NCBI GenBank assembly: GCA_046563655.1
Contig: CM102287.1
Location: 5,146,001 to 5,210,000, forward strand
Length of the DNA: 64,000 bases
Direction: 5' to 3'
DNA from: Yuukianura sp. NJ FZ-2021
Taxonomy: Eukaryota
Made by a program: the position numbers and the translations under genes. Shown here piece by piece: positions 1 to 27,400 of the stretch. The notes under the pieces are model-generated. The model was not told the DNA's origin. It saw only the letters and a list, made by a program, of their open reading frames with translations, and searched no databases. Every line of letters starts with the position of its first letter. Within the stretch, counting starts at the first letter, position 1.

Positions 1-1125
1 TCCAACATACTTTTTCAAGGTCATATGAACAAGAATAGATTCCACAAAAGCCAGAAAAACAAACAATTGACAGATACTTGTAAAGTAGTCCATGGCTTTG
101 GCATAGGATGCTGCTGGAGACGCTTCGCTGAGACTGTATGCTTGCGTTGACAAAGCCAAAATTGTAGTGACGCCTAGCGACACTCTAGCTTCCGTTGCGG
201 TCACATCTAACCAAAATGAAGCCCATGATGTTGCGACGAGCAAACCGCAAGGTGAAAATGCTCTCATGACGTAGTAGCCCAATCTGCGCTTGAACGGTAA
301 ATGTGCTTCCAGTATCGTGTAAATACCACTGAAAGTACTGCGAGAATGTTCTGATTGATAGGGTTGGCCGACATGAAATTTCCGAAGTTGCGTTCTTTGA
401 CGTTCTTTGACAGTTCCAACTCCGAGGTATGGGTACCATTTCAGAGTGGAATTTGTGGCTGCTTGAGAGTATAAACCGAATCCAACCTCGCAAACACTTT
501 TGTCGAAGGGATACCATTTGACATCGACATCACACAAGACAACAGTGGAAATACGGCCGTTATACATTGTCGTACCATTTTTGAAAATCCGGATGAATGC
601 GTTTGATTTGATGTTGGAGTGTAAATAGCCGCTTTTTTCATTGTCTATGAAGATATCCGGAAACCAAATCCGAGAAGTGTCGGAAACAACCAAAACGTTT
701 GGAATCTTAGCGGATGAATTCAAACTCGGAAGCTTTTCATACTGATGACGTGGATCGTGCCAGAAAACGCGCAGCGTTAGCTGTGCTCCGAGTTCTTCTT
801 GAATATCATCAAAATAGTTGATACTTCTGAACAAAACTTGAAGAAAAACCGGAAATGGAAGCCGGAACTGTGAATCCGAATCATTACGCCCAGTCGATAC
901 CGTAGCGCCTTGTACCGGGTTGAGATATCGGTCGTCGGTATTTGGAATTCCCAACGAATAGTGCGGAGGTGGAGTAAATCGGTCGTACCTTTTTTCGTCA
1001 AGAATTTGTTCCAAAATTTCAGCTTCGATTCCTTGATTATGAATCTTTGTGCCCAAAATTTTCGAAAAATAAAAATTGAAAATCACGAGAATTTTCCAAA
1101 AAATTGAAAAAATTTGACTTTTCAT
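1..1125 (-). CDS. Cys-loop ligand-gated ion channel subunit, paralog 1 (intronless, GluCl-like; 3' end runs off the window)
   Basis: Manual translation from ATG 1125 is open to position 1: MKSQIFSIFWKILVI...CDVDVKWYPFDKSVC (Cys loop)...WLDVTATEARVSLGVTTILAL...AKAMDYFTSICQLFVFLAFVES. Absent from the ORF track, probably because it has no stop in the window. Confidence 0.93.
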   Translation of the reverse strand, partial: MKSQIFSIFWKILVIFNFYFSKILGTKIHNQGIEAEILEQILDEKRYDRFTPPPHYSLGIPNTDDRYLNPVQGATVSTGRNDSDSQFRLPFPVFLQVLFRSINYFDDIQEELGAQLTLRVFWHDPRHQYEKLPSLNSSAKIPNVLVVSDTSRIWFPDIFIDNEKSGYLHSNIKSNAFIRIFKNGTTMYNGRISTVVLCDVDVKWYPFDKSVCEVGFGLYSQAATNSTLKWYPYLGVGTVKERQRTQLRKFHVGQPYQSEHSRSTFSGIYTILEAHLPFKRRLGYYVMRAFSPCGLLVATSWASFWLDVTATEARVSLGVTTILALSTQAYSLSEASPAASYAKAMDYFTSICQLFVFLAFVESILVHMTLKKYVG

Positions 1126-1714
1126 TGTGGAAGTCTAGGTACAGAATGGACGCATTTTCGAACCGATTTGACATTATACGCTGTTGCTCTTTGGAAATCC
1201 TTGAAACTGACGTTAACTGGAACCGTTTAGTTGATCAAACACAATTTTTTGAATAATCTAAAAATTTCTGTCATTTCCACACTTACTATGCAATCATTTG
1301 AAAATCATTTGAAGAATTTTTTTGGACATGAATAGAATAGTCATTTACTATTCTATAGAAATAAAAGAAAACTCTTAACGTAATTTGTCAAGTTGACATG
1401 TAGTAACAGCGCCGAACTGACAACGTGAGCGGTTTGAATTAAACGTCCTCGAATTTCTAATTTCAATTAGAAGAAAGAGTTGCATACAAATTTTTTGTTT
1501 ACGTATTTTGCCATTTTCCTAAATTGCAGACTCTTTGCGAACGTTTTGAAACTTTTTTGTAACTCCGTCTTTACATTGTGAAATGAAACGCACTTGTTGA
1601 TCTGTGAGATACGGCTACTTTTATTTACTACATTTCAAAAATTCACCAATTTTGGATTCAGAAAGATTTGATTCAACTTTGGAAAGAAAAGAATCTTGAA
1701 AAAAAAAGTTTACC

Positions 1715-3172
1715 CTAGCTCACATATTGTTGCAAGCAAACGAAAACAAAGATGCAAGTGAACGCTAGAAAAAGCGCTGGAAACGCAATTCGTGCAATTT
1801 TATCAATTCGTCGTGCCCTGGTCATTGCGTAAATACGATCTCCCTTTGACGCAGATGACGTTCCCGAGGGTCTTGTACTTTCAAGCTGTGCTTGCGCGAT
1901 ATCGCCTCGTTCCAACTCATTAAGTTCGACACTCCGCTTTTCAAAAATTCGATTCGAAACCTCCGCCCGTTTTTGCCTGAGGATCCATAAAATCTTTGCC
2001 AAATTTTTGATTCCCTTGTTTTTGGATTTCGATTTTGCGCTTGTCTTGACTTCTTTGCTTTTAACGTGATCCGTTTCAACATATTTCTTCAAGGTCATAT
2101 GAACAAGAATAGATTCCACAAAGGCCAGAAAAACAAACAATTGGCAGATGCTGGTAAAGTAGTCCATGGCTTTGGCATAGGATGATGCTGGAGCCGCTTC
2201 ACTGAGACTGTATGCTTGCGTTGACAAAGCCAAAATTGTAGTCACGCCTAGCGACACTCGAGCTTCAGTTGAGGTCACGTCTAACCAAAAAGCAGTCCAT
2301 GATGTTGCGACGAGCAATCCGCAAGGTGAAAATGCTCTGATCACGTAGTAGCCCAATCTGCGGTTGAACGGTAAGTGAAGTTTCAGTATCGTGTAGAGAC
2401 CACTTAAAGCACTGCGCAAATGTTCCGATTCATAGGGTTTACCGACAAGAAATTTCCGCAGTTGCGTTCTTTGACGTTCTTTGACGGTTCCAACTGCGAG
2501 GTATGGGTACCATTTCAAAGTGAATTTTGTGGCTGCTTGGGAGTATAGACCGAATTCAACTGTGCAAACGCTTTTGTCGAAGGGGTACCACTTGACATCC
2601 ACGTCACATAAGACAACAGTGGTAATCCGGGCGTTGTAATTTGTCGTACCATTTTTGAAAATCCAGATGAATGTGTTTGGTTTGATGTTGGAGTGTATAT
2701 AACCGCTTTTTTCATTGGATATGACAATATCCGGAACCCAAATCTTTGAAGTGTCGTAAACAACCAAAACGTCTGGAACGTTAGTAGATGAATTTAAAGT
2801 CGGAAGATGTTCATACTGATGTCGTGGATCATGCCAGAAGACACGCAGCGATAGTTGTGCTCCGAGTTCTTCTTGAATGTCGTCAAAATAGTTGATACTT
2901 CGGAACCAAACTTGAAGGAAAACTGGAAATTGAACTATCTGAGAACCCGAATCATTCCGTACCGGGTTGAGATACCCGTCGTCGGTTTTTGAAATTCCCG
3001 ACGAATAGTGTGGAGGTGGAGTAAATTTGTCGTACTTTGTTTCGTCAAGAATTTGTTCCAAAATTTCAGCTTCGATTCCTTGACTATGAATCCTTGTGCC
3101 CAAAATTTCCGAAAAATAAAAATTGGAAATCATGAGAATTCTCCAAAAAATTAAAAAAAATTGACGTTTCAT
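1715..3172 (-). CDS. Cys-loop ligand-gated ion channel subunit, paralog 2 (intronless, GluCl-like)
   Basis: Single ORF with a signal-like N-terminus, WxPD, Cys loop CDVDVKWYPFDKSVC, M1-M3, long loop and M4 (RIDKIARIAFP). Start set at MKRQ (3172) by alignment with the paralog starts; the ORF track extends it to 3211. Confidence 0.95.
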   Translation of the reverse strand: MKRQFFLIFWRILMISNFYFSEILGTRIHSQGIEAEILEQILDETKYDKFTPPPHYSSGISKTDDGYLNPVRNDSGSQIVQFPVFLQVWFRSINYFDDIQEELGAQLSLRVFWHDPRHQYEHLPTLNSSTNVPDVLVVYDTSKIWVPDIVISNEKSGYIHSNIKPNTFIWIFKNGTTNYNARITTVVLCDVDVKWYPFDKSVCTVEFGLYSQAATKFTLKWYPYLAVGTVKERQRTQLRKFLVGKPYESEHLRSALSGLYTILKLHLPFNRRLGYYVIRAFSPCGLLVATSWTAFWLDVTSTEARVSLGVTTILALSTQAYSLSEAAPASSYAKAMDYFTSICQLFVFLAFVESILVHMTLKKYVETDHVKSKEVKTSAKSKSKNKGIKNLAKILWILRQKRAEVSNRIFEKRSVELNELERGDIAQAQLESTRPSGTSSASKGDRIYAMTRARRIDKIARIAFPALFLAFTCIFVFVCLQQYVS

Positions 3173-3870
3173 TGTGGAAGTCTGTCTAACAAAGGGATGC
3201 CTTTTCAACATCGATTTGACATTAAACCTTGAAAACCTCTTCAGAAAACCTTGAAAATGATATTAACTGAAAGCTTTTAGTTGAGTAAACAGAAGTTCCT
3301 GAATATTGCAAAAATTTCGGTCATTTTCACACTTTACTAGTATTGAGGACATGAACCAAAATTAAAGCAATTGCATACATAAAAAATTAATGAAATTTTT
3401 TAACGTAATTTCTTAAGTTGAAATTCAGCAAGTGACGACGTGAGCGGTTTTGAATTCAACGTTTTCACTTCAATAATTTTCCAAAGTTTTTTTTTTGGAA
3501 TGTTTAACAATTTTTGATAATTTGATTGTTGGTGTGTGTGGCATTCCTAACTTCCTAACTACGTTCTCGGCCGTACTAGTTGAAGTGGTTCCATGGTCAA
3601 AAACAATTTGGTCAAAAAGTGAGAAGGTCAAAAACACGAAAACATATATTCTAGCCAAACTATTTGCAACGGTTTTCACTTTTTGATCAAATTATTTTGA
3701 CCATTTCAGCTGTATAAGTTGATGAAGCAAATTTCCTCTAGTTTTGCTCTAGGAGTTTCGAAATTTGGAAATTCTAAAAAAGATTTGTGAGATCTGTGTT
3801 TGCTAATTTGCTAAAGTACAGGTTACTGAGTAATTCGCAATTCCCAGCATTTGAAATTGATGTTTTGTTT

Positions 3871-5370
3871 CTAGTTGTCATACTGTTGCTTGCATATGAA
3901 CGCAAAACTGCAAATGAATCCCGTAAATATCGAAGGAAAAGCAACTCGTGCAATCCTATCGATTCTTTTAGCCTTTTTCAATGCACATGCTCGAGCACGA
4001 TCCAATTCTGCTGAAGGTGAAGATCCACTTTCGATCTGTTTTGGCGTAGGCTGTTTCCGAACATGTTGAAGATCGTCGAGCTCTGGAATGTCAATTAAGA
4101 CGCAACGCTTTTCAAAAATTCTGTTTTCAAAATTATCCGCCTCTTTCCGATTAACGCTCCATGCAATCTTGGCCAAATTTTTGTCATCCAATATTCTCTT
4201 TTCTCCTTTTTCATGATCTTTCTTGGCGTTGGGCTCTGCGCATGCCTTCTCCAGTTTGGTTTCGACGCAGTTCTTTACACCGTGTTTTCTGAGTGTGATG
4301 TGGACAAGGATCGATTCCATAAAAGCCAAGAAAACAAATACTTGGCAGATGATGGTGAAGCAATCCATGGCTTTAGCATACGCTGTTGTTGGAGCTGATT
4401 CGCTGATGCTGTAGGCCTGTGTTGACAGAGCCAAAATTGTCGTGACGCCTAGGGATACTCGTGCCTCAGTTGAGGTCACGTCTAGCCAAAATGTAGCCCA
4501 TGAAGTTGCAACGAGCAAGACGCAGGGTGAAAATGCTCTGGTGAGATAGAACCCCAGTCGTCGTTTGAATGGTAAGTGGATTATCACTACAGTGTTGTTT
4601 CCGCTGGGCAACTGTCGCATGGTTTCAGATAAGTAGGGCTGTCCCAAATTGAACTTGCGTAGTTGCGCCCGTTCCGAAATTTTGGAAACTCCTAAGATCG
4701 GGTGCCATTTTAGCATGGATACCGTGGCAGACATGGAGTAAAGACTAAACTCAAGTTCGCAGACGCTTTTGTCGAAGGGATACCATCTGATGTCAATGTC
4801 GCAAGTGACTACGGTGGTCACCCGGGCATTGTAAACTGTCGTTCCGTTTTTGAAAATCCGAACAAACACGTTCGGTTTGAGACTGGAGTGTAAATAGCCA
4901 CTTTTTTCGTTGGATATAAAAATGTCGGGGTACCAAATCCATGAAGCGTCGGAGAAAGTCACACTTTTCGGTACTTTTGAAGAATTCAAAGTCGGAAGAT
5001 TGTCATACCGATGGCGTGGATCGTTCCAGGTTAGTCGCATGGTCAACTGTGCTCCAAGCTCTTCTTGTCTGTCGTCAATGTAGTTGATATTTCTAAACCA
5101 AACTTGAAGAAAAACCGTCAATGGTGCGACTGTTGATTTGATTTGGTCCGTTCCGGTTGAAACCGTACCGGTTTGTACCGGATCCGTTTTGGTTGAATCC
5201 GGAATATAGTGTGGAGGCGGAGCAGATTTGTCGTATATTGATTCGTTAAGAATTTGGTCCAGAATTTGAACCTCGAGCTGGTGAGTTTGAAAAGAGCCAA
5301 GAACATTCGAAATCCGAAAATTCAAAATGAACAGAATTTTCAAAAACGTTGCTAAATTTTGACGTTTCAT
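3871..5370 (-). CDS. Cys-loop ligand-gated ion channel subunit, paralog 3 (intronless, GluCl-like)
   Basis: 499-aa single ORF; Cys loop CDIDIRWYPFDKSVC, M2 STEARVSLGVTTILAL, M4 RIDRIARVAFP. Confidence 0.95.
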   Translation of the reverse strand: MKRQNLATFLKILFILNFRISNVLGSFQTHQLEVQILDQILNESIYDKSAPPPHYIPDSTKTDPVQTGTVSTGTDQIKSTVAPLTVFLQVWFRNINYIDDRQEELGAQLTMRLTWNDPRHRYDNLPTLNSSKVPKSVTFSDASWIWYPDIFISNEKSGYLHSSLKPNVFVRIFKNGTTVYNARVTTVVTCDIDIRWYPFDKSVCELEFSLYSMSATVSMLKWHPILGVSKISERAQLRKFNLGQPYLSETMRQLPSGNNTVVIIHLPFKRRLGFYLTRAFSPCVLLVATSWATFWLDVTSTEARVSLGVTTILALSTQAYSISESAPTTAYAKAMDCFTIICQVFVFLAFMESILVHITLRKHGVKNCVETKLEKACAEPNAKKDHEKGEKRILDDKNLAKIAWSVNRKEADNFENRIFEKRCVLIDIPELDDLQHVRKQPTPKQIESGSSPSAELDRARACALKKAKRIDRIARVAFPSIFTGFICSFAFICKQQYDN

Positions 5371-5979
5371 TGTGTAAGTCTATTTAGCGAATGGGACTCA
5401 ATTTCGGTTATGGGTTGGGACCAGCACCTAGCATTTTGAAAAACCGTGAAATGAAAATGACATGAATAGAAGCTATTTAGCTAACTAAACAAAATGATCT
5501 CGGAACTTGAAATTGCTGTCACTTCTCACTCATCTACTTTTGAAATTATTTCGAACATAAATTGATATTCAAGCAATTGCGTAACAGCAAAGAAAAATAT
5601 CAAGGAAACGCCCTTGTGTTTGAGCTCAAAAGAATCTTGCCTCGAAAAACTAAAAATTTTGAACTGAATTCAAAAAAATTCAAGGAGATTCGCCCAAAAA
5701 CGATTTTTTTTTAAATGAGTTTAGCATTTTAGCGTATTTCATGCTTCAAAATAGTCTACCCTATTGTTTGTAGCACTAAATAGTGGCGGTACTTTCTGCG
5801 ACAAAGTGTCGTAAAAATGAATTGTGTCATTCACTTTTACAACAATGGATTCTTCACTATTGAAGGTTTTCGAAAGTGGATTTCCAAAATTAATTGCTCA
5901 AAACTTGAAATTGAATTTGAACGCGTTTCACTAGTTTTCAAAAGCCTTTTTCGCAATTCCAACCAACGACAGCACTACT

Positions 5980-6914
5980 ATGTCGTTCGTGCCTTTTGTG
6001 CTTGCAGTTTTTGCTGTTTACTGGAGCGCTGGGTCAGGAACTGGAAAAACTTTTAGCGTGACCCCATGCAATTACAAACCAATTGGAACGGTTCAAAAAA
6101 TTGGTAACCTCGATGTCTATTTCACGGGAGACATAAGTTCCAAAAGAGTGTTGATTGCTTATTACGACATTTTTGGATTCACCCCGCGAAATACAAATGT
6201 GAAACAAGTTTGCGACATTTTGGGCAAACAAGGATTTTTGGTCGTGCTGCCCGACTTTTACGGTGGAGAGTATTGGGACTTGGACAACTTTCCGCCAGTG
6301 TAATGTCACTGAACAGTTTTCATTTCTGATTTCAAATTTCGAAAAATTTAATTTGAAATTTTGAATTTCAGTCCAGCTGAACTTGGAGCTTGGTTGGGCA
6401 AAGTCGCACCATGGACCAAAGTTCTGGCTGATACGAAGAGTGTCATCGAGCACTGCAAGGGCAAAGGAGCCACTGGATTCGGAGTGTTCGGTTTTTGCTG
6501 GGGCGGAAAACAGTCCATTTTGCTCGGTGGGTCGGAATTGGCTGGAACCATCAAGGGTGGGGCCATGGCCCATCCGGCGGGACTTACGATGGCAGATGCT
6601 GAAAATAATAAAATTCCGATTCTGTTCATGCCGAGTAAAAACGAAGATGATTTGGTCTGTCCTGAAAATTTTGAAAAAGTAGAACAAGGAATTAACATAA
6701 ACCTTAAAATTAATTTTTTTTGTCGTAGCTCCCAATGGTAGAAGCAGTTCAGAAAAGACTGGGCAAAGACGCTGCAGAGCACTACAGATTTGATGACATG
6801 AATCATGGATTTTCAGCTGCTCGTGGAAACTTTAATGACACGACAAATCGAGCCAGAGTTGAAGAAGTCCTTGGTCACTTGATCAAATTCTTCAACAAGC
6901 ATCTTCCTGAATAA
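5980..6914 (+). CDS. Dienelactone hydrolase family protein (3 exons: 5980-6299, 6372-6654, 6729-6914)
   Basis: YDIFGF, VVLPDF, nucleophile motif GFCWGG, AHP, acidic NEDD, MNHGF; GT-AG introns keep the frame; hydrophobic N-terminus. Confidence 0.9.
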
Positions 6915-9443: not shown

Positions 9444-12400
9444 TCATTTGTGTCGTGGAAGTGTGGTTGAGGGGCCCTTGGAAGTAGATTGTTGGGGAGC
9501 ACTTTGATCTGACTGCGTAGACGACAGGGACTGGGAGTCCATTTTCCTTGGAAGCGTGGCCGAAGTTGGAAAGGCTGGTTCATCTCGCGGTTTCCAAATG
9601 GGTGAACCTAATACAATCCAAAACATGTTAAGGCCAGAGGTCAGAGGTAAAAATTTAGTAATTTCGAAAGATCACGAGGCCAAATAAAGGTTCCTTGACA
9701 ATCATTCAGCACTCTTTAACAGGTTGCGTAATATCTCAGCTGTTTACCAAAAAAATGTAAATACAGTGGATTCTCTAAATAAGGGACAGGAGCTCCTCCT
9801 CTTTCTCACTTTCACTCGAAGTCGCGGTACCGTAAAGTTTTAATTTTGGAGGGGACGTATGTTTCAGTTTATCGGCTTATTTTTACGATTGTTTTTTTTT
9901 TTGGTTAATTTTTTTTTGGTGCGAAACAAAAGTAATTAGCTAATTAAATGGAATTAACTAATATTAATATATATATATATATTATATCTGCGCACAAACT
10001 GCGCAACAGCGCACAAACTGCGCAACATCGCACAAACTGCGCAACAGCGCACAAACTGCGCAACAGCGCACAAACTGCGCAACAGCGCACAAACTGCGCA
10101 ACAGCGCACAAACTGCGCAACAGCGCACAAACTGCGCAACTGCGCACTGTATATAATATATTATATTATATAACCTGTTTAATAAGGGTGACATTCACAA
10201 CGTAATTTGCATATAATATACCATATAATATTGATTCGTATATAGATATCACATATAATTAGCATTAATATATGAATATTATGTATATTAATATTATTGT
10301 ATTATTGTATATTAATATTAATTATATACTCTGAACTTCGAAACAGGAAATTTTCATTAGAATGGTGTTCCTAGCCTTAAATTCCATATAACTGACCGTT
10401 TACCAGAAATCTTACGGTACTGGGGGAGGCGCCTACTACCAATCCTCCAATCGTGATTTTTTCCCTTATTTAGAGAATCCACTGTAACAAACAACGGAGT
10501 ACCAAAAGTGCCAATTCCAAAAATTAGATTTTCTGGTACCAATTTGTATAAAAAATTTTAAAAATCCGTTGAAAATATTATGGTTACGGGAACCTGGAAT
10601 GCAGATTAACTTTTTTGTGAAATCTAAAAAAAACACTAGTCATTACGCAACCTGTGAAAAAAAAACTTGACAACAAACCTTGTCAACAAACCTTGAGTTC
10701 AACTTACTGGGTTCCGGCGGAGGGGGGACTGAAGGGAACTGATGCGAGGACTGAATGAGCTTAGCGACCGAACCGGTCGATCCGGCAGAAATTGTTGATG
10801 TCGTGGACAACGTCAAGTGATTCGGTGTTTGACCTAGCATGCCTTTCATTCTGGGCATTGTCGTTGAACCACTTCGAACAGTCGGTACCAACATTTTACA
10901 ACTCGCACCGGCATCTTGATCTCGATTCGGATCGGTCGATCCACCTTCCGAGTCCTCCCGAGCCAACTTCCTACCTTGCTGAAATCCACCGGACGAATCC
11001 GAACTTTCTTGAGAACGAAGTCGTGCCGAACCGGTTTCCAAGTTTCCAGCGGAGTGCCGTTGTGGTGGTTTTGGTGGTTTCTTTCGTCCTAAAAACCAAA
11101 ACACAACGAAATCCCAGTGAATACAACCCAAAGTAATTGCTAGTTTCAGCGTTCCGGATGCTCTCAGCACTCAAAAGAAGTTTTCGCTTGAAGAATTTCA
11201 ACTTTTCTGAAAACTTTTCTCCAATTGTCTAAAAGAAACCACTTGAAACAGAAGAAGAAGACTTAAGCTGGCGTTTTCTTTTCAAAAAGTCCGCGCCATT
11301 TTCTTCTCCTTTCTAAAAGAAAACTTCTGTTTTCATCTTAAACTTTTTAAATGGTTCCTCATCTTCACTTGAATTCGGAAAAGGATAAAAGCGAAAATGA
11401 AATGTCTGTTATTTACTTAGGATCCGTGCTCATTCAGAGCCCAACTTTTCCTGGATTTCGAGATCTTTTCAATTCACACTCAGACTAAACTTTTTTCAGT
11501 CCCTCCAGAGTTCCTTGACACCAAATTTTTCGAATTGGTCTCTTAAATTTCATGCTGGTAGATTCCAACAAAGTCATTGATTGCATTTGAAAAACTTTTT
11601 TGCTGCTGTCTTTCGACAATCAGAAAGAGAGCAAAAGTTTGAGCCATACAGTAGACTCGTCACTTTTGTGCTCTACTTTTTCTAAAAAAAAAAGTTGCTA
11701 CAAACGAGAAAGAGAAAGATGAACAGAATCGAAAAAAAAAGTTTTTAGGTTCCCGTTAACTTTTCTTTCATTAAAAGTTGGCAATTTAGCAACTTTTATA
11801 GCGCGTTGCAAAAATGTTAAGCGCCAATTCACTCCCTTTTATGCGCTTTATCTATTGCAACTTTGAAAGTCCTTGAAACATTAGAAGTTTTTCTGAGCAG
11901 AAAAAATTTCAAGCAATTCGTTCCATGTTGCTTGTTCGAATACAGGTTTTCAGTTTTTCAGAAAAATTTCACCTAAACTTTGGAAGTCTAAAATCTGAAA
12001 TTTTGAAATTTCGAAATTGGAAAATTGCTAGATTAGGTTATGTTGATTGTAAGAAAAGCGGTTTTACATTAAAATGTACAGTACCTAGAGTGTGAGCTTG
12101 TCGGTGAGGTGGAATGCACGGTCGTTCGGAGGGTTCACAACCTTCGGGCACTGCGTAGTGTGACGACGACTCTCCGCCGCTGTCAGTAGTTTTGTACGGT
12201 AAGCTCATATTTCGAACTGAATCTCGAATAATGTGTCGAATATTTTTCAAAAAGGGATTTCGAAGTTCTGCTGTAGAATTGGAAAGGAGATAAACTTTTT
12301 CTGATCTTCTTTGGGCTTGGTTACGAAGATGAATCAGTTCCCAGGCAAAGTTGGGTCCACTGGATTCGGGTTCTGGGTCACGCGGGTCACCGACTTGACG

Positions 12401-15400
12401 AACTTGCACTTCGGACACGGGGATCAAAACTTGGTAGCGGATGATTTCCACTTCGGACTTGTCAGCCATCTTGGAAGTGCCACTCTGCAACGACAATTTA
12501 CAAATGTAAACTGATTAACTTAATACAACCATCCATGAATCGATTTGAGTCAAGGTGAATGCTGCTCGGTCGACATTGATCTACAACGTTCAAGTTTTTT
12601 TGAAATACTATTTCGATTCTTTATATAAAATGTACTAGGTAGAATTGGTTAGATTATCGTTGTTGGGGTAGTTATGTTCATAGTTGTTTCTAAAAAACGA
12701 AACCAGAAGGTAGCATTTAAATTTAAATTCGTTTGTTTTAGCCTCAAACTTTTCTATTTTGTTCCTTCTTCTGTTGAATTGTTGTTGGAGAAAGTTAAGT
12801 CAAAAGAACAAGACGAAATGGAGAGAAAGAGCAAAGAACTAATCGTTAATCTCGTCGTTTCTTTACTCAAAACGAGTAAAGTATCCAAGACTTTTGGAAT
12901 TTAGAACAAAGACAGAAGAGAAACGGGGGTTAAACTTTTTTTCTTTCTTCAGCAGAATGAATTTCCTTGTTCTTGAAAAGTGAATTCTAGCAAGAAAAAG
13001 CGCTTTCAAACCCCAGCGGAGCCGGAGCACCCACTTTCCAGTGCCAACTGGCTGGAAAAGTGGAGAAAACAACTTTTGGACGAGAGAGGAAAGAGAAGGC
13101 GATGTAAATAAAAGAAAAGGCTTCGCCCCTGCATAACTTACCATTAATTTCTTCTTGTGTCGCAGACGCTCTTTGCACAAAAACACCACTGCTGTCTTGA
13201 ACACAAAGCACGTCGCATGGAGCTCTAACCCCTTCTTGATCTTGCCTAAAAAGTCGGCAATGTTGAGCCACTCGACGCCTCCGTAATGGAAGAGGTCACC
13301 CGGACTCAGGTCAACTTCCACTTTGGAAGTTTTTTGATGCTGGCGGTAGAGATGCTCGAAGATGGCTCCGTACTCTTCATGTATTCGCTGCATTTCGTTG
13401 ATATGACCAGCCACACCTTGCATTGACTGTCGAGCATCTACAAACGCAAAACAAACAAAAAATAACACTAAAATTTGCATTTACTTAAAAATTCATAGAC
13501 TTTAAACATTTGATAAACGTAGCCCTACACTTTTACAAAGGTGAAACTTTGGTAGAATTTGGAGTTTGTAATGTAAATGGAAAGTTTTGAACCAGAAAAA
13601 TTCAAAATTTGTTTGTAGAGCGAGAGAAAGCAAACTTTCACTTTTGAAAACGAAAACGTAATAATAAGTTTTTGCATTAGTTTCCTGAGGCACTACCGTT
13701 TCTAAACTAGAAATAGAATCTCGCCCTCCCACTTGACAATGCAAATAACTTGTGTCAATATCCCTCTCTTCCAGCCAAATTATTACATCCGACATTCGAC
13801 ATTTACTACACGCTACCGTTATCCTTTTCAATGTAAAAAAGAGAACACGTATTCCATGTAACTCTGGGTAGATATTACATAAATAGATGTTATACAACCA
13901 TCTCTCTATTGAAACAGGTAACAAATGCAAATATTTGCTTGCTCTCAGCTACAATTTTGCTATTCAAAAGCAAAAATGAAAGTAGGAGAAAGCATGCGCC
14001 ATTTTCATTGCTTTTTTTTTGTAGTGAAACAAAAAACGTAACCCTGCGCAAGTTGTTTTTACCATATTTCTGAAAATAGATTTGGAAAGTAAAAAAAATG
14101 TCTTTAGTGAGATTGGAATACACAACTTTTTAACTGTTTTTAATGAAGTTGGAATTTTGTTTTTGATCAAATGGCAGTTGGAACTTACCGAGAAGCGTTT
14201 GGTACTCGGGAGTGTTGGTGTCAACGAGGCTGAGAAGATGTTGTAGCAGCAGAGGGTAGGTCAGTATCCGTTGAATTGGTTTGATCAAATAGGATTCAAG
14301 TGTGTTTGAATGCTGCATGCGTGGATTTCTAGCTGCCAAAAACTGTTGTAGAGCCTGATTTCCTTCTAGCGGATGGAGCAACTTTTGAGCCTTGGAATGT
14401 GAAGCACAAAAGGAAGAGTAGAGCTTGAAATGGTCAGCAAAACTGAGGAACGCCGCAGCAATATTTGCTAGACACGCCTGGGATTTAAAAAAATACATTT
14501 TTTAAAACATTTTTTGAAAGGAAGGCTCAAAAGATGAATTAGCCTTTTGGTATTTAAGTGACCAAGACAAATGAGCAAAAATTTTCTCAATTTTTCATTC
14601 TGAAAGTTCTGCTGCTGTAGGGCAGAGAAGGAGAAAGTTGATCGGCAGAGCGATAGTCGAAAGTGAAACTTTTGAAAAACGAAAGTGGAGTTTTTCAAAA
14701 AGGCGGGGGAGTGAAGTGGAATTTGTTGGATTTTGGTTTCCCATTTCGGGTTTGATCCCTGCTTAAGTCTTACTTTGAACTCGGATGGATGTGTTATTGA
14801 TTCGAGTGAGGAGGGCGTGTCAGTAGTTCCTACTGATGCTTCCAAACTTCGCAGAAATTTCCGTTGAACTGTCACCATTTCTTGGATGTTTCCAAATACT
14901 GCTTCCATTTCTTCAGCTGACAGAAAGTTTTCTTGTCGAAGTGGTTCCAAGTACTGTTCCAAAAGACATGTCAAGTGCTGAAAAACATTGAAAAAAAACT
15001 TTTGAAATTTAGAAACAAAAACAAATGAATTTTTTACAGAAATTTTTGTTCTCAACTTGAATTTCGCAATTTGAACAAAAAAGTGCCAAAAATTATGCAA
15101 ACGAACGTTCATTTTCAAAAAAGCAAAAGTTTTAAGACCCGAAATTTCGGCTATTTGCAAAACACATTGTGGACAACAAGCTCAACCGAGTTTAGCAGAA
15201 TGCAAGCAAGTTTTAAGACAAAGTAGATCCAGTATTTGGGAAGTATTTTGTCCACAGTAGCGGTATTTCATAAAATTTTGAAACTAATTTTTGGTTTTTA
15301 CCTTAACATAGGCTCTCTCCGTTTCCACCAGTTCCAGAATGACTTTCTTCAGTTTCTCTACATCTCTAGAGCCAGTTGGCGTGGATGTTCCGTAGGGATG

Positions 15401-18400
15401 AGTTGGCGAGTTGCCACCACTAATGACCGGAGAGCACTCCAGCCCTTGGCTCTGCTGTCGTGTCAACCGCGTCTGCCTCTCCCGCGTTCGACAGATCCCA
15501 GTCACTTGCTCCGCCGACTATAACAACATTCCGAAGCCATTAGACTTACAACCTTAGTTCATATTTCTAAAAGTTTGGCCTAGAACCAGGGTCAACATAA
15601 CCTATGACTTAAGGGTATAGGTTAGACTTGCACAAAGGAAGGCGGGGAAGGGCATGTCTGCAGAACAAATGTGTTTACACATTAAACTCTCGTTAATCCC
15701 TTGATTTAAGGCCTCGGCCACTTTCTCCTAATAAATCAAAGTCGAAAGTTTTCTCCTGAGAGTTTTACAGAAGCTTTGGAGATGAGCAAAGTAGACAATT
15801 AATACAAAGCGCTTTTCCAAATTTTAGGAAAAATTTTGAAAAGTGAAGTCTACAAGGTCTAAGTCAACAGAATAGGGACTTACCATTAGAAGCGTTTCAA
15901 TTTCAGTGGAGTCTCCCTTAACGCTGCGCAGGCCAAGAGATGACGAAGGGCGACCAATGTCTTCTGGATCAGAGGGACTCAAATCTCGATCTAAAATAAA
16001 ACATAATTAGAAAATTGCAACAAATAAATACAAATCAGTGAATTTTTAAATTATGGGGTGTATAGGGGTGTGCATTGGTCACCGCTTTCTAGAAATCCGA
16101 ATTTCGGATTTTGGCGGATTTTGATTAAAAATCCCATATTTAAATCCGGATTAAAAAATCTGGATTTAAATCCAGATTTCAGAATACATAGGATTTCCCA
16201 GATTTTTTTTTGTTGCGAACAACATTACGAATTGGTTTTAAACTTCAAGTATTTAAAAAAAAGTTGATAACGGACATCATGAAAGCTCATTCTTGATTCA
16301 CTTGACTTAAAAAACTTTTTTTATTTAAACAAAATTTTTCAGTTTTCTGTGTCAATTTTCCAATTGTCCATACCCGGAAGTGGAACGAAAAATCCGTCAA
16401 ATCCGGATTCCATTTTTTTGAAATCCGGATTTGGGAGAATCGGAATCCGTCTAAAATTCGGATTTCTATCCGGAGCAAAAATCCGGATGTACACCCCAAG
16501 CTCTGTATAACATTATGCAAGTATTTGAAATGTTAGGTTAGGTTTGTAACTCACTTCCAAGAGGTGCTGGAACAATGAGATGTGACAAAACATCGTCCGT
16601 GAGGACAATGGGGTCGGCCGGAGGCGGTGGGCAGACGAGCTGAGCAATGGCAGCGTCAGCCGCTGCAAGAGCAGCAGCCAGTGACGGTGGTTCCGTTCGA
16701 GCTGAACGCAGCATGAGGCAAAGTGACAGTTCTTCTTGCAGAACAGACTCAATGTACATCATGTCCAAGTCAGACACGATGGACCCATTGATCACCAGAA
16801 TCTCATCTCCTTTGATGATTCCTAAAAAGACAAACTGTTCATCAACTTTTCAAAAAGATCAAAAACAAAAAGAACCAAAATTGGAAGTTTTAGTAACAAA
16901 AGCAAGGGACGCTTCATCATTCGGTCATCATCATCATCATCATCATCATCGTCTCGATTCTTTACAGAATCAGTTTCATCAATTTCTCCGACTGAGCGTT
17001 TCTTTTCAAAAGTTATAAAAGAAAAATCCTCATCATTTTTCCTCTCTGACCTGCTCCGGGTTCATTTTTTTAGAATTCGTATAAGAAACGGAAGAATTTT
17101 TTATAGATTTTTTTCGTGCTTTACAACTAGAGTTTTTGTATCACTTGGAAAAGATTCGTCTTCCTAGTGAATTTGATGGGAAAATGGAATGGAGAATCTA
17201 GCGCGCAATTTTTCAAAGAACCCTGAGCCATTTTTCTGTTTTCCCCCCAGAGAATTTTCCCTTTGAGCAGAACCTAACGTGATTAATTACAACGAACGCG
17301 CAGTTCCGACCGCAACTTCCCGAACAATCATTGGATAACGTTGTGTCATCATCCGAAAACCAAAAGAACTAACTTAATCTAACATAAAATAGCCTAACGT
17401 AACAGAAAACTCCGCTCCAGACTTATTTCCGGAGAAATTCTAAGATGCTAAAGTCATTCTAGCGTCTTGATTATCTAACAAACCTCGAGGCTTTTGCTCA
17501 CCTCAGCTAACATAACCTAACCTAAAACTAGACTATCCCGAAAATCCAAAAGAAAGTAAAAGAAAGTCTAACTTTTAAGACAAATAGGATTGAGGGGAAT
17601 TGGAGCCGCTCTAGGTTGGCTTCAAGACTTTTCCATTTCTATTCGTAGCACTTTCTCTTCAGGTTCTGATTGCTCCTGCGCCTCAACAAAGTTGGGCATT
17701 TCCCGTGGCCTTTCCAAAGGGCTTAAGGTTACGTTTTAGGTTTAAGTTAGGCTAGTTTTTTTTTTAGAAAAGCACTTGGATCACTGCGCTTACCATTATT
17801 CATGGCCACACTCCGCTCTTCTACTCGGCTCACATAGCAGCACAATTCATCTTGTCGGTCGGCATTCTCCACCAGCTCAGCCTCGACACTAAAATTGGAA
17901 ACGCTTAGTATATTATGCTCAAAGGGAAAATCATGAAACAAGGCAAGAATATATTAAAGTAATTAAATTAAAACTATAAAAACTAAAGTACAAAGTTTTG
18001 CACTTGAACAGTACCTAAAACCCCACATTTGGTCCAGCGAAGCACGAGCCAGCTCCACTTGATACAAGAGCTTGCTCCGAACTTCCACTACTTCATGTGT
18101 GGAGAGCTGCAAACAAAGAACAAGACAAAGCGTTCAATAAACCCTGGATTACAGCGTTCCCGGACACTACTGGACGGACACAACTGAACCAAACTTTTAT
18201 CGCTTATTGTCCATGAACGTTTCGGTCCATGTGTGTCCGTCCAGGAGTGTCTGGATAAGAGATTCCAGCGCTCCAGAACAAAAAAGAATCCGAGCACTGG
18301 AAGAAGACAGAGCGGAAGCTCAGAAAGTGAAAACAAAGAGCGCTCTCATTCTTCATGTCAATGAAAGAGGCAGAGCAAGTGAAAGTACAAATCGTAGAGG

Positions 18401-21400
18401 AAATGCCGCTTGACGGAGGAACTTACAACGCAAAAAGAAAGCGACATTCGGAGGTTTAAAGTTGGACTTCAAAGGGAGTAGGCGGAAAGGAATTCAGGTT
18501 CTATCCAATGTATCTATTTGCAATTTAGAGAAAATTGGGATATTCGTCTGCGTCAAGGTTCAATTGGATGGAATCCAGCAGAGAACAGCGCTTCAAGCAA
18601 GAAAAGTCAAAGTTCAAATGTCAATCTGTCACAAATCTGCTACGTCCAAAAGGGAATGAAATTGTTTTAAAGGAAAGACAAGTAACCTGAATTTGGAATT
18701 CGGTTTGTGGTTGTTTGAACTTTGAAATGAAAAAACACGATTCAATTTAAAACTGAAATTACGAAATTTTAAAAATCCGATTTTGTAAAAACGATTCATG
18801 AAAACAACGTGGAAACTACAGAACTATTGAGATTACGATGCTCAGAAGCTCCAAATTTTGGGAAAATTTTCACCGACTCTAACTTTTCATTGCTTTATCA
18901 TGATTTTTTGTTGCAAAAATGAAGTTGCATCGCAAACATTGAAACTCCGTTAGTAAATCCTACAGTCAAAAGGTTTAAGCTGTGTTGGATAGGCAGGAAG
19001 CATGAGTTGATCAAAACGGTTATTAGTTTTTGAAATGATGACGCATTTTTTTGAAAATTGAGACATGAATTTTGAGAGAGTGTCTGTGTTGGACATTGAT
19101 GGAGACCTGCATGAGGTCTCATTTTCTCAAAAACTTTGAACTTACAAAAGTGTCAATCATGTCACTTCGATGCGGAACAAAGTAATTTGTGTCCGGAAGC
19201 TCTCGTCGTTTTTTGACTCGAACAAAGTGTTCCATGGGAGCCAAGTTTTTGCGAGCACAGGCGGAGACCAGGAATTCTTCAACTGACATCCCATCTCTCA
19301 GTGGAACCGTAACCACCTAGAGAAAACGTAACCATCAGAATAGAGAAGGTAACCATCATAGAATATGAAAACATAATGAGATTGAATTCCGCTTTTATGA
19401 TTATGGTTATGTCGGCCCAAAGGCCCAAAGGAGAAAGCTCAGGGCAAAGGAGAAAGCGAATTCAGCGATTCAAAATTTTGAAACCTCTCGGAGTGTCTCA
19501 CTTGATTTTCTGGAAGTGAAATTTTGATAGTTCTTTCCCCCTCTCTCTCTGTTGAAGTCGACGCATGAAGAGATCGGCGTGACGAGGCTGAATTTGAGCG
19601 TGAAAGTAGTGGAGCTCGACGCTTCGTAGCTCCACGACCAGCTAACAGGTTGCTTAGCAACGACGGACTCCTTGCACACACAAAGGCATGGAATGATGAC
19701 ACGGTGAAAACGCCCAGACGATTCAGCGTATTCTTCGTTGTGCGAGACACATGGGACAGCAGACTCTGTTCAGAACAAAAAAAAAAGTCATTTTCATAGC
19801 ATTAGTCTTCAAATTTTGATTGTCATGCCCCCAAATTGTTCCAATTTTAGAAATTTTGACAATTTCAGAAAAATACAATTTCAAGCCAAATTTCAACATG
19901 TTTGTAGCTTAATAAGTGATTTCTGCGTCAGCTGGTGCGTGAGAAAAGTCTATTATTGGTTGTGAAACGACACAAAACAATTGCTAGTGATAAGAGAAAA
20001 CGGCTGTAGTGTTCTGTTTGAACAAGTTTCGTTTTTTTTAACAAAACGTGCGAATGTGAATATTCTCAAGAGGCTTTAGAAAAACTACGATTGCTCCTGT
20101 GGATCCATTACAAACTTCCTTCCGCCTCTTCCATTTCCTTCTACTAGAAATGCTTCGTGGCAGTTTTAGACAAGAAAAAAGACCGGACAACAGCCGATTT
20201 TTATCTTTCGTTTTTTAGTGAAAGTTTAGAGCTGGTGAAAGGACACGGAAGCGGTGCTAGAAAATGCACCCCAGAAGTACTAAAGTACGGAGCACTTGAA
20301 GTGTCCCAAGGGCCCTTCCAAGGACTCTTTACGGGAGGATGACATTGCATGGCTATTCAAAAAGTCCAAGAACAAAAACTCCACCGCCGCAAAAAGCAAT
20401 TCGAAAACTGAAATTGCAGGAAGAGACCAAACCAATTTGGTTGATTAAAACAATTTTCTACGGTTCTTTCATTTTATGAAAATGACACAAAAATCTTTAT
20501 TTTTGGTTTAACCACACACTTCAAAAAATCAATTTTAAAATTTTTGAACAAATCGTTCCGTCGAAATCCCAAAAACGCGAATGGTGACACTGGTATTATT
20601 GAGCTTTGATGCTTTTATGTCATATTTGACATCCAATTGGATACAGTTTTTTGCGCATGGGTTGAAATTTGTGCAAAAAAACTGCAAAATATTTTGCAAT
20701 GTTTCAAGTATTTTTTCTTTTCGTTTTTCCCTTGGTTGAATAAAATTTTTCCTCAAGAAAACTGAGTTTACAACAAAAATATGTACGGAGAGTTGAATTT
20801 TGCGAGGGGTGTATTTTCATGATTATTATAATTTTGAAAAATTTCAGTTTTTCAAAATAATAAAACAGTAAACAGTAAAAAATAAAATGAAAGGAGTTTT
20901 TCCAGTTCCTTCCACATCTGCCGCTGCTCTGCAAAATGTAATGAGCATTTCGTCCTTATTGCATTTGTCCATCTCTCTGGAGCATAACAATGATATTCCA
21001 AATGAGGACAGAAAAAAGAGCCTTATAAATGGAAATTTACTAAACACAACACACTCCAACAGAAAAAACAACTCATTCAGCATAAGGTTCCCCCAAAAAA
21101 TAAAGTGAATTTCATGACGAAGTGAATTTCATAAAATAAAAAAGGCCAAAAGCATCTTCCAAAAAACATAAATTTTCCTGTTGTTTTCTTTTCCTATATG
21201 AAAAAACCTAACCTAGTAAAAAAAAGTTGGCAGGCGCTGCATATCCTTGGAAGGTCGGAGCATGGTGAAACTTGAGTGAAAAGAAAAAAAAACGAGGAGC
21301 TTTGGGAGTCTGATTGGATATTGATGCTGACCTGGAGTCGGGAGTCGAGTATACTACGACTAGACAGGAAAATCTCATTTCAGAAAATTTCAAAAAACGA

Positions 21401-24400: not shown

Positions 24401-27400
24401 CAAACCACCCTGTTATCGAGTATTTTGTTTTTGCCTTATTCAGACAAAATTTCTTGGCCCCGCCGTCCACTCTTCCGTACAAGCTAAAGAATAAAAAACG
24501 CAAAAGCAATCCAACCCAATTTGGACAAAGTACCATGGCCTTAAAAATTCTAGGAAATAAGGCAATGTTTAAAAATTTAACTTTTTGTACTCACACTGAC
24601 CTAAATATTCAATTGACCTTTGAGGTTTGCCTTTCCAGCGGAACGGCTTCTTTATAGAATGCGGTGCTTTAGATGGAGAACGTTTATCCAATACTTTGTT
24701 TCTGGAAAGAAACTACGGTTGGACTGGAATTTTAGTTGAAGCTGAACCAAACAACTATAAAAGGTTGGTTTCAAAACACCGCAAGGCCTGGACATCACAC
24801 TCGTGCATGTCTCCAAAAGAAACTGCAGAGAAAGTAAGTGGAAACGGATCTCTTTTTCCAGAAATCCAGTTAGCGGCAACTTTTTTTTAAAAATGTTTTG
24901 CAGTTGACTCTAGTTGGAATCGACTACGGCTCTAAATCTGGCGGATTGACATTGATGAACAACTCGATTCCGCTGAAGAAGTTTGGGGGCTATGTTAATT
25001 CTAAACGTAAACCAGTAGAAGTACAATGCTTTCCACTTTATACCTATCTGTTGGCACTCGGTAGAACGGAAGTGGATTACTTTAGTCTGGACGTAGAAGG
25101 AGCCGATTTTGAAATTCTAAAGACAATTCCATTCGACAAAGTCATTTTCAAGGTAAAATTTTGGTTTTAGTTTTTTGACCTTCTAAAAAGTAACAAATTT
25201 TGAAAAATTTCTTTTGCTGCGTAGGTTCTGGAAGTAGAAGTTGCATGGGTGAACGAAGGGAAGCAAGCAGTGAGGACATTTTTAGAACAACATGGCTACG
25301 TTTTTGTAAAAGAAGTAGCGGTAGATTACATTTTTGTACACAATTCAGTAAAATTGCCAGTCGGTTTAGTACTTTAGTCCTCGAGACTGAAAATTCTCTA
25401 TTCGTTATTAAAACTTTCTTTTTTGAATTATAAAACTCAATGTAAATAATTCAAAACAGGGACTATGAAAGGTGTCCGATGGTCCTTATGCATTATAATG
25501 GGGGGTATTGTACTTTAAATGCGTAGTGTAAATGCCGGTGTATTTTGGGTGCATGAACTGCGTCAAAATCATGCTCCAGTTCCCAAAATTGTTCATAACT
25601 GTGCGTAATCGACAAAAAACAACGTTGGAGAAACCACATTTGAGGCGAAATGCCTCTGCTAAGCAGGACGTGACATGACACTTCAAAATTTCACAAATGG
25701 TTTGGGATTATAGTTTTATTTTTAATGTTTGACCCTTTGTTTACTGTGAACAAATTGTGTTGCTAATAGCAATTTCGATAACTGAACACAAATGTACGGA
25801 TCCAATCGAACAGCATAAAAGTTGTTTCTATTCCTCATCTGAAGTTGAGTCTAATGGTGAATCCCTTCCAATTTCAATGATAATGTGCTTCCTAATTCTT
25901 ACAATTATTTACTTTTAGGGCATCCAAGTTCGGACACTTTTCAACAAGTTCGAACTTCGAACTCAAAGCACTTTGCTGTCACTTAAACTCCGCGTATTTC
26001 CTGCTTTTCTTTTTACATTCCGGATCACTCTCGGCGACATTTAGAACGTACATTCGGTCTCCTTGCAGTTTGCCACCGCCACAAAAACTAATTTGTATAA
26101 AAAAAAATTGTATCTCCACGAATGAATATTTCCAGACTTTAAATTAATTGAATGGGTCCTTAAAATTTTGCCACCTTGTAATCCAGATTTTTTTTAATCC
26201 AGATATAATGTATGTGGAGATATTTTTAGCGCAAATAATTCTATCCTGGGTTGCTGGAGATATTATTTTATAATTAAATATAATTACGGCAACAAAAATT
26301 CCGTTTCATTTCCCCTGTAACTGAATTTTGAATGGAAAAAGAAAATCAACAAAGGGTCAAACATTAAAAATTGAACTATAAGTACCGCAATTAACGGGCA
26401 CTTCATTTTACCATGCATGAGTGAAATATAGCAGTTAATTCTAACAATTGTAGTTTCTAGATATAAAAACTGCACCTACCGACTCCGGACTTCACTTTAA
26501 TAAAGTGTTCAGTAAGGTAACATTTTTCTTTAAAATTTCAATAAGAACGAAAACCGCAAGTGAACTCCTTGAACCAATTTCTTAACGTTATATAAAAGTC
26601 GAAATTTAAATTGACTCATTGGTACCTTGGAAAAGAAAAATTTCAGATTTCATATTCACGTTTCGGTTCATTGCTGATTGTTTAGTCGGCTGCTTTGCAC
26701 TTGCTATATTTCTGGAGTAACTACGGAACATGCCCATGCCCTTTCACCTATGCACATCCCATCTTATTTATTCTAATAGTTAATGATCTATTAGACGCTA
26801 CCAACAGTGTTCAGAAAGTGTTCAAAAATGGTCCAAAAATCGTCTACGAGCTTCAAATTACGTGTATTGCTCGTCGGTTTCATTCTGTTTTTGGTCACCC
26901 GCTACTTATTTAATATTTTGTGCAAAAATGGTGCACGCTGCACCGATCTCAGCAAATTTTCACAAGATGACCCTGAACTTGTAGAGTGTTTGAAGTAAGA
27001 TTTGTTCAAATTGCTAACTTTGGTAAAAATTTCTTCAAAAAGTACAGTATTAATTGTTATTTCTTTATTTTTGACTCATTTAGACAAAATTTCTTGACTC
27101 TGCCGTCCACTCTGCCGTACAACCTAGAGAATCCAAATCCCGAAAGCAATCCGACGCAATTCGGACAGAGTAGCATGGCCTTAAAAATTCTAGACTATAA
27201 GGCAAGGTTTAGAAATTTAACTTTTTGTGATCATTTGACTTGAGGAGTCAATTGACCTTTGACATTTGTTTTTTCAGAGGAATGGCTTCTTCATTGAATG
27301 TGGAGCCTTAGATGGAGAACTTTACTCCAATACTTTGTTTCTGGAAAGAAACTACGGTTGGACCGGACTTTTAGTTGAAGCTGAACCAAACAACTACAAA

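Follow-up and report, generated by a model that had tools for sequence, protein, structure and literature searches.

Glutamate-gated chloride channels (GluCls) are the targets of the avermectins and textbook examples of anion-selective Cys-loop receptors. What would such a receptor bind, and which ions would it pass, when its genes are intron-free, duplicated in tandem and altered in the pore? The question is raised by the left end of a 64,000-nucleotide stretch of the genome of Yuukianura sp. NJ FZ-2021 (NCBI GenBank assembly GCA_046563655.1, contig CM102287.1, positions 5,146,001 to 5,210,000 of the forward strand), which we refer to in its full length as the window and to which all coordinates below refer. 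Three uninterrupted open reading frames (ORFs) lie on the minus strand in its leftmost 5.4 kb, arranged head-to-tail, and encode GluCl-like subunits. An initial annotation of this DNA had seen in them a retroposed GluCl-like gene that was amplified and diversified in ligand specificity, possibly as a family of sensory receptors. Here, we arrive at a different reading, which we consider probable: that the three genes encode functional pLGIC (pentameric ligand-gated ion channel) subunits, belonging to an old, fast-evolving, intron-free offshoot of the GluCl superclade, gated by a glutamate-like ligand and fitted with an altered charge filter.

Architecture, fold and family placement

The Pfam domains PF02931 (Neur_chan_LBD, the ligand-binding domain) and PF02932 (Neur_chan_memb, the transmembrane domain) exceed their curated cut-offs in all three copies. 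Copy 2 (1715..3172, minus strand, as are all coding features of the array) is a complete coding sequence of 485 amino acids plus stop whose start Met aligns with those of the other copies; an in-frame ATG upstream at 3211 would alternatively give an ORF at 1715-3211 with 13 extra amino acids. Copy 3 (3871..5370) is likewise complete, with 499 amino acids plus stop. Copy 1 (1..1125) is partial, its 375 codons running from the start Met to just past M3, where it is open at the left window edge, and its M3-M4 loop and M4 fall left of the window (Pfam E-values 5.5e-22 for the ligand-binding and 1.9e-18 for the transmembrane domain). The spacing of the copies, measured by direct-repeat families, is 2047-2074 and 2192-2201 bp, which reproduces the at least three paralogs ~2.05-2.2 kb apart reported in the initial annotation, with the restriction that the intactness of copy 1 can be judged no farther than the window edge. 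At the amino-acid level copy 1 is 83% identical to copy 2 and 64% identical to copy 3. The differences in the loop-C region, the loop-F indel (ERQRTQ versus ERAQ) and the N-terminal indels are as first described.

The C-x13-C Cys-loop reads CDVDVKWYPFDKSVC in copies 1 and 2 (490-534 and 2564-2608) and CDIDIRWYPFDKSVC in copy 3 (4759-4803). Helices M1 to M3 are found in all copies and M4 in both complete ones (copy 2: M1 2285-2356, M2 2198-2266, M3 2099-2179, M4 1736-1807; copy 3: M1 4486-4557, M2 4399-4467, M3 4300-4380, M4 3892-3963; the M2 segment of copy 1 from -2' to 20' is at 124-192). An AlphaFold2 model of copy 2, made from a 56-row alignment, reached a mean predicted local distance difference test score (pLDDT) of 86.1 and a predicted template modelling score (pTM) of 0.74, and shows a beta-sandwich and four long helices, with low confidence in the alpha1-beta1 insertion (residues ~60-80) and the M3-M4 loop. 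Foldseek searches of the PDB with this fold returned chains of GlyR, honeybee RDL, GluCl and GABA-A at target-normalized template modelling scores (TMt) of 0.83-0.92, with GlyR, RDL and GluCl at 0.86-0.92. A ligand-binding domain, a four-helix transmembrane domain and a C-x13-C loop, the attributes of the Cys-loop or pLGIC superfamily, are thus all present, and the three genes are Cys-loop receptor subunits of complete architecture and fold.

Against solved structures, copy 2 scores roughly equally with GlyR alpha1 (7e-44), GABA-A subunits and C. elegans GluCl-alpha (2e-41). With HMMER, 8113 relatives at E <=0.001 were found when 1.84 billion cluster representatives were searched exhaustively, with a maximum identity of 42% (P0013; the next, P0012, reaches 41%). 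The nearest relatives, P0001, P0012, P0013, P0019, P0024, P0059, P0037, P0076 and P0077 in our numbering, come from environmental assemblies only, and P0019 alone among them carries a name, the automatic "anionic glutamate receptor". A word-indexed protein search with a single query gave 11 matches; the same kind of search with a clade profile gave 9, among which were no new clade members, only named HisCl and oyster GlyR-like anchors, and the ESM Atlas yielded nothing beyond generic GABA- and GlyR-like clusters.

Phylogenies were computed with FastTree (164 rows) and with IQ-TREE under LG+C20+F+G4 with posterior mean site frequencies (PMSF; 63 rows x 408 columns), with support given as ultrafast bootstrap (UFBoot) and SH-like approximate likelihood ratio test (SH-aLRT). 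The 63 rows were picked by clade from the 164, dropping the truncated P0096 and most of the 107-row GABA/Gly-like part and keeping eight outgroup rows; P0032, which matches 3RHW (C. elegans GluCl-alpha) at 1.3e-106 versus 1e-90 for GlyR, was the anchor for canonical GluCl. The two trees agree. In the IQ-TREE analysis the window trio (100/100) sits in an 8-row subclade with P0001, P0012, P0013, P0019 and P0024 (100/98), and this subclade is part of a 16-row clade (93/89) that adds P0077, P0059, P0097, P0037, P0050 and the Orchesella-type rows P0076, P0003 and P0004, and that we name the EAR clade after the prefix of its M2 helix. Its sister (85/87) is a 34-row clade in which canonical GluCls from arthropods, tardigrades and nematodes are joined by other GluCl-like rows. 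Together the two form the GluCl superclade (100/99), and the HisCl rows P0300-P0304, UNC-49 (P0015), the Tetranychus GABA-beta row (P0007) and others lie outside it across the 100/99 branch.

By this phylogeny the window genes belong to the GluCl superclade but appear to fall outside canonical GluCl. The Cys-loop phylogeny that the initial annotation had suggested therefore upholds its assignment of the genes to the anion-channel branch as GluCl-like subunits, to the exclusion of the HisCl, UNC-49 and GABA-beta rows, and the genes are not one-to-one orthologues of a conserved subunit; their identity to any relative is at most 42%. No description of the EAR clade was found in the literature searched; the sole paper found on ligand-gated ion channels of Collembola covers GABA-receptor subunits (PMC11275251). 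As far as this search reaches, the EAR clade is a GluCl-related clade not previously characterized.

Agonist site, pore and charge selectivity

Six residues of GLC-1 contact glutamate, namely Arg37, Arg56, Ser121, Tyr151, Thr197 and Tyr200 (legend of Fig. 3 in PMC4266781). We transferred this numbering through the alignment of P0032 to 3RHW into a 62-row table, in which canonical rows read R, R, S, Y, T, Y at the six positions and HisCl rows read M, A, M, L, T, F. At 4/6 contacts, copies 1 and 2 (R, R, N, Y, S, Y) are identical to the canonical set; copy 3, with R, R, N, Y, S, N, is identical at 3/6. The change of Thr197 to Ser that is found in all copies is conservative, and the remaining changes, one in copies 1 and 2 and two in copy 3, are not. 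With Tyr200 replaced by Asn, copy 3 has lost the cation-pi tyrosine of loop C and reads SGNNT instead of SG(I/L)YT. The pharmacophore R/R/Y/(S)G-x-Y is retained by copies 1 and 2 and by most EAR-clade members.

Loop C (316-372, 2390-2446 and 4591-4647 in copies 1, 2 and 3) differs from the canonical state in a further respect. A pair of cysteines in this loop is described as a hallmark of GlyR, GluCl, HisCl and pHCl (PMC4569296). Neither cysteine is present in the trio, nor is the pair found in P0001, P0012, P0013, P0019 and P0037; half of it is seen in P0059, P0097 and P0050, and the full pair in P0024, in P0077 and in the Orchesella-type rows P0076, P0003 and P0004. Most other rows of the GluCl superclade, including every arthropod canonical GluCl row, carry both cysteines.

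The pore is the most distinctive part of these proteins; its Glu residues at -2' and 20', like the loss of the loop-C disulfide, go beyond what the initial annotation had noticed. The M2 stretch reads T-E-A-R-V-S-L-G-V-T-T-I-L-A-L-S-T-Q-A-Y-S-(L/I)-S-E in all copies and is identical in the three from -2' to 17', in keeping with the near-invariance first noticed, and it puts Glu at both -2' and 20', with Ala at -1', Arg at 0' and Thr at 13' between them. The motif PAR is the signature of anion channels and crucial to their selectivity (PMC5102579, PMC12309072, PMC4569296); the trio has Glu-Ala-Arg in its place. PAR is found in 126/174 aligned rows, including all canonical GluCl rows. An acidic residue (E/D) at -2' occurs in 17/19 rows of the EAR clade, counted here as the 16-row clade plus P0096 and two locus ORFs described below, and in 0/155 others of the same alignment; the two exceptions within the clade are P0001, which has Gly, and the truncated P0096. 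Glu at 20' is present in the trio, P0001, P0012 and the L001 ORF, the canonical GluCls having Ala; the remaining members of the EAR clade have Gln, except for Thr in P0013 and Ala in the truncated L004 ORF. That the acidic -2' residue is restricted to the EAR clade and kept across divergences down to 35% identity argues for a selected pore property. Acidic residues at comparable places accompany cation selectivity elsewhere: the cation filter of GLIC has Glu at -2' as its key element (PMC5760087), and Glu at -1' and 20' forms the selectivity filters of nAChR, the nicotinic acetylcholine receptor (PMC4569296). The anion branch itself has cationic members in GRD/LCCH3 and EXP-1 (PMC11037462). 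In M3, the glycine needed for nanomolar ivermectin potency (PMC3345530) is replaced by Ser, Ser and Ile in copies 1, 2 and 3, so that high ivermectin sensitivity is unlikely.

Two of the Orchesella-type rows, P0003 and P0004, bear the public name "Glutamate-gated chloride channel". Both have Trp at the Arg56 position and Glu-Ala-Arg instead of PAR; the name may overstate what is known of them, and the channels may not be chloride channels.

We propose that the ligand of the window receptors would be an alpha-amino acid, most likely L-glutamate or a close analogue, binding at the subunit interfaces. The basis for this is that no copy has lost the complementary-face arginines (equivalent to Arg37 and Arg56) or the loop-B Tyr, and the loop-C (S)G(I/L)Y motif is retained in copies 1 and 2. 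Copy 3, with Asn for the loop-C Tyr, would probably contribute only a complementary face, in heteromers, or have an altered agonist preference. Binding would open a pore whose charge filter, which has a Glu ring at 20' in addition to the Glu at -2', is unlike that of every canonical GluCl; from this we predict a weaker anion selectivity or a shift of selectivity toward cations. We infer this altered ion selectivity from the pore residues, and it is the most interesting possibility at this locus. A bolder extension, which we put forward tentatively and think rather unlikely as it stands, is that the whole EAR clade represents a natural charge-selectivity switch in the GluCl lineage, that is, a family of pLGICs in springtails and their relatives from soil, gated by a glutamate-like amino acid and cation-permeable or nonselective. 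The proposed switch would consist of the change of the PAR proline to Glu or Asp at -2', to which the sub-branch of the window would have added the Glu ring at 20' and from which it would have dropped the loop-C disulfide.

Several observations weigh against a glutamate-gated channel with an altered filter. Ser121 is Asn in all copies, Pro93 of loop A is not kept (D/S/S in copies 1/2/3), Phe91 (F/V/F) is Val in copy 2, and the loop-C disulfide is missing; because of these changes the agonist could differ from glutamate. Long-branch effects may account for the placement of the EAR clade as sister to all ecdysozoan GluCls, and a tree joining it to the arthropod canonical GluCls (delta lnL 4.8) is not rejected by the approximately unbiased (AU) test (p = 0.319). 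In the pore, Arg 0', Ala -1' and Thr 13' are anion-type residues, non-alpha subunits of anion channels are described as often being without the complete PAR motif (PMC4569296), and the pore may stay chloride-selective.

The pore residues and the incomplete PAR motifs of non-alpha subunits, together with superclade membership (100/99) and the retention of most glutamate contacts, also favor the strongest of the alternatives, namely that the three are ordinary inhibitory GluCl paralogs, for example modulatory beta-like subunits, in which the -2' Glu and the missing disulfide are without effect on selectivity or ligand. Several GluCl genes are present in mites. We regard this explanation as possible, though doubtful: it is opposed by the confinement of the acidic -2' residue to the EAR clade and its persistence over such large divergences, by the extra Glu ring at 20' in the trio and its nearest sisters, and by the fact that a filter with Glu at -2' is that of a cation channel in GLIC (PMC5760087).

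Intron-free state, duplication and selection

The array raises the further questions of how it arose and whether its copies are diversifying. The absence of introns noted at first is borne out by the three uninterrupted frames, and introns are seen in the neighboring dienelactone-hydrolase and sif/Tiam1 genes, as had also been stated of the other host genes. About 350 bp ahead of each ATG can be aligned across the three copies at a mean column identity of 68%, so that the duplicated upstream DNA reported earlier is real. The duplicated-unit parts of these 5' flanks, which would hold the promoter and 5' untranslated region, lie on the minus strand at 1126..1480 for copy 1 (from the alignment and repeat families D4, D5 and D7), 3173..3530 for copy 2 (direct repeats and flank alignment) and 5371..5730 for copy 3 (direct-repeat family D5 and flank alignment). 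Because the 5' flank with its putative promoter was duplicated along with the gene, the array grew by tandem duplication at the DNA level. The older split separates copy 3 from the pair of copies 1 and 2, at a synonymous divergence (dS) >1.1, and the younger separates copy 1 from copy 2 (dS 0.27).

A scan of metagenome contigs found four loci, L001-L004, in one data set, which carry sister-group genes 35-40% identical to copy 2. Three hold single uninterrupted ORFs (L001, 441 aa; L003, 431 aa; L004, 337 aa, truncated by the end of its contig), and at L002 a single tblastn match covers query residues 30-482 without a break. Upstream DNA of 0.7-4.9 kb is present at L001, L003 and L004, and downstream DNA at L001 (2.6 kb) and L003 (1.1 kb); GC content is 39-43%, and none of the four loci has a poly(A) end. 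They are most simply genomic copies. Since these sister loci are also intronless, the intron-free state predates the split of these very divergent genes; any retroposition would then be ancient, and its hallmarks therefore erased. The 3' flanks and spacers of the array contain neither a poly(A) remnant nor a target-site duplication. An AATAAA occurs ~90 bp past the copy 2 stop, and runs of A9-A10 lie ~330 bp upstream of copies 2 and 3 and are too weak to interpret. The missing hallmarks and the intronless sister genes thus give no support to the retroposition supposed in the initial annotation as a recent event.

The variable N-terminal insertion was considered as an in-frame unspliced intron and rejected. 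Its GT..AG stretch is 48 nt long in copy 1 but shrinks to 24 nt in copy 2, and in copy 3 it is out of frame. This stretch is not visibly AT-rich, unlike the intron at ~6300-6372 in the dienelactone-hydrolase gene, and its amino-acid similarity is kept at dS >1.

A search for sequencing runs that contain the array listed four DNA runs and no RNA run. In sequencing run X3, contigs span nearly the whole array (window 1-5400) with differences of ~3.5-5% (49/1381, 29/553, 37/1417 and 73/1725 letters). Such contigs, about 96% identical across the array, could come from a divergent haplotype or from another array copy present in that sample.

Selection was estimated as the ratio (omega) of nonsynonymous (dN) to synonymous divergence by the pairwise Nei-Gojobori method on the three paralogs only, a comparison of low power. 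Omega is 0.32 between copies 1 and 2 (dN 0.086, dS 0.266), 0.19 between copies 1 and 3 (dN 0.243, dS 1.26) and 0.27 between copies 2 and 3 (dN 0.297, dS 1.10). By region it is 0.09-0.12 in M1-M3 and 0.12-0.28 in the ectodomain, the two differing at p 0.08, 0.03 and 0.007 for the three pairs, and it exceeds 1 solely in the signal-peptide and N-terminal region of copy 1 versus 2 (1.08, from few sites). Loops A-G do not differ from the non-loop ectodomain (Fisher p 0.82, 0.42, 0.63). Among ectodomain segments loop C diverges most: by pair, 8, 13 and 14 of its 23 residues differ, and omega between copies 1 and 2 is 0.59. All reading frames have stayed open at dS 0.27 and >1.1, and by these substitution patterns the three genes are functional, with purifying selection acting on all copies. 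In the comparison of loops A-G with the transmembrane region that was put forward earlier, selection is purifying, and the rate in the loops does not exceed that of the remaining ectodomain. The initial annotation had named purifying selection acting uniformly on the loops as an outcome that would speak against diversification, and it was largely what we found, loop C alone standing out and three sequences giving little power; the proposed diversification of ligand specificity has no statistical support, most glutamate contacts being kept, and loop C, with the Tyr200 to Asn change of copy 3, is its only exception.

These results bear on the original idea, in which amplification of a retroposed GluCl-like gene gave rise to a lineage-specific family of chemosensory or orphan-ligand receptors with diversified ligands and expression in sensory appendages; we now judge it improbable. 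Cephalopod chemotactile receptors offer a parallel of intronless, tandem pLGIC genes. The layout of the array also resembles the nAChR expansions of molluscs, which are intron-free tandem pLGIC genes ascribed to retroposition and, after it, duplication in tandem (PMC6896357). The divergence of loop C, the loss of the cation-pi Tyr in copy 3 and the loss of the loop-C disulfide would suit altered ligands; paralogs at all of L001-L004 indicate a multi-copy family in at least one other organism, and the DNA runs hold many contigs that are 80-95% identical to the array. Set against this, three copies are visible and a tblastn search of the remaining 58 kb of the window found no additional copy or fragment, purifying selection acts alike on the binding loops and the non-loop ectodomain (Fisher p 0.42-0.82), no copy departs from the two glutamate-binding arginines or the loop-B Tyr, and the hallmarks of retroposition were not found in the flanks and spacers of the array.

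Slightly less credible again is a stimulus other than an amino acid, such as protons, zinc or an amine, as in the pHCl and insect group-1 channels near GluCl, with the arginines playing a structural part. The substitution of Ser121 by Asn and the losses of Pro93 and of the loop-C disulfide are in its favor. Rows of the GluCl superclade with a strongly altered M2, which may be insect group-1-like, still hold all six "glutamate" residues, so that keeping them does not prove gating by glutamate. Nothing positive speaks for any other ligand, though, and the pharmacophore is retained in copies 1 and 2 and most of the clade. Lastly, that the copies are nonfunctional retrocopies, pseudogenes or an assembly artefact, as their intronless tandem state and their being missing from public protein sets might suggest, is already effectively refuted by frames of 375+, 485 and 499 codons that are open at such divergences with omega of 0.19-0.32, by an omega of ~0.1 in the transmembrane core, and by the presence of the array in contigs of four DNA runs with two organism labels.

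Surroundings of the array and wider comparisons

A high-copy dispersed repeat occupies 3593..3712, in the spacer between copies 3 and 2 and outside the receptor genes. Its summed contig depth in run X1 is ~12,000, versus 190-570 in other bins, and many joints and loose ends mark its borders at 3593, 3634, 3673 and 3708-3712 in each of the four runs. The repeat may belong to the MITE (miniature inverted-repeat transposable element) or SINE (short interspersed nuclear element) kind. Head-to-head with copy 3 lies a gene of the dienelactone-hydrolase family (5935-6738, plus strand), with a ~72-bp GT..AG intron, AT-rich, at ~6300-6372. It is followed by a sif/Tiam1-type RhoGEF gene (10646-22124, minus strand) split over many ORF pieces with RhoGEF, PH_Tiam1 and Tiam_CC_Ex domains; a 205-aa exon of this gene shares 83% identity with Orchesella cincta and with Folsomia candida, compared with 79% for Tribolium and 77-81% for most of the other arthropods listed. 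Small differences in this one exon thus point to a hexapod host that is most likely a springtail.

Farther to the right is a second tandem array, on the plus strand, of four ORF pieces (24874-25167, 27263-27838, 30711-30971 and 32160-32438) spaced 1.4-3.4 kb apart, which match Pfam Methyltransf_21 (FkbM domain) at E 2e-12 to 7e-7. The family is mostly bacterial, and the array may be horizontal in origin. A Ty3/gypsy-type long terminal repeat (LTR) retrotransposon at 35512-40126 (plus strand) encodes a gag of 308 aa (Retrotrans_gag) and a pol of 1075 aa (reverse transcriptase, RNase H and integrase). A 530-aa open frame at 49771-51363 (minus strand) coincides with the sole GC-rich patch of the window (51% vs 38%), has no Pfam match, and is accompanied by long overlapping frames on both strands. 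Coding sequence of low complexity or rich in repeats may lie here, or the frame may be a composition artefact.

With canonical GluCls (C. elegans GLC-1/GluCl-alpha, 3RHW/3RIF, and the arthropod P0032) the receptor trio shares the superclade (100/99) and the fold, the equivalents of Arg37, Arg56, Tyr151 and, in copies 1 and 2, Tyr200, and Arg 0', Thr 6', Leu 9' and Thr 13'. It differs in being ~26-31% identical to them, in having Glu for the PAR proline, Glu at 20', Asn for Ser121 and Ser or Ile for the M3 glycine, in being without the loop-C disulfide, in a low-confidence insertion of 25-33 residues between helix alpha1 and strand beta1, and in its intronless, tandem genes. Insects, by comparison, typically have one highly conserved multi-exon GluCl gene with alternative exons (PMC12309072). 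Closer to the trio stand the Orchesella rows P0003 and P0004 and the environmental rows P0076, P0077, P0059, P0097, P0037 and P0050, which are in the EAR clade and have E at -2' and Q or E at 20', but are 28-32% identical to the window proteins and all keep Ser121; P0003, P0004, P0076 and P0077 also differ in retaining the loop-C disulfide.

The mollusc arrays, though similar in layout, belong to the cationic nAChR branch, comprise tens to hundreds of genes and are those of lophotrochozoans; in that study, intronless nAChR genes are reported as not seen in ecdysozoans (PMC6896357). The window array belongs to the anion-channel branch of a hexapod, with three copies seen. Loss of PAR or an acidic residue at the cytoplasmic mouth of M2 is shared with GRD/LCCH3 and EXP-1 (PMC11037462) and with GLIC (PMC5760087). 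These channels differ in being GABA- or proton-gated and phylogenetically separate. The classical selectivity switch, moreover, has Glu at -1' and a shortened loop, and the window proteins have Glu at -2' and retain Ala at -1'. The M2 of GLIC likewise combines Glu at -2' with Ala at -1', matching the window proteins.

Were the three genes to encode ordinary chloride channels, they would represent a lineage-specific GluCl expansion of modest interest. The EAR lineage, in which an acidic residue has taken the place of the filter proline, the disulfide has been lost in a sub-branch, introns are absent and genes have been duplicated in tandem, may instead be regarded as a natural experiment on the evolution of ion selectivity and agonist recognition in the pLGIC fold. 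It also bears on the ecotoxicology of macrocyclic lactones in soil fauna, the glycine of M3 that confers ivermectin potency being absent in the window proteins. If the proposed charge-selectivity switch is true, these animals would possess a fast excitatory pentameric glutamate receptor beside the inhibitory GluCl, built from intron-free, tandemly duplicating genes.

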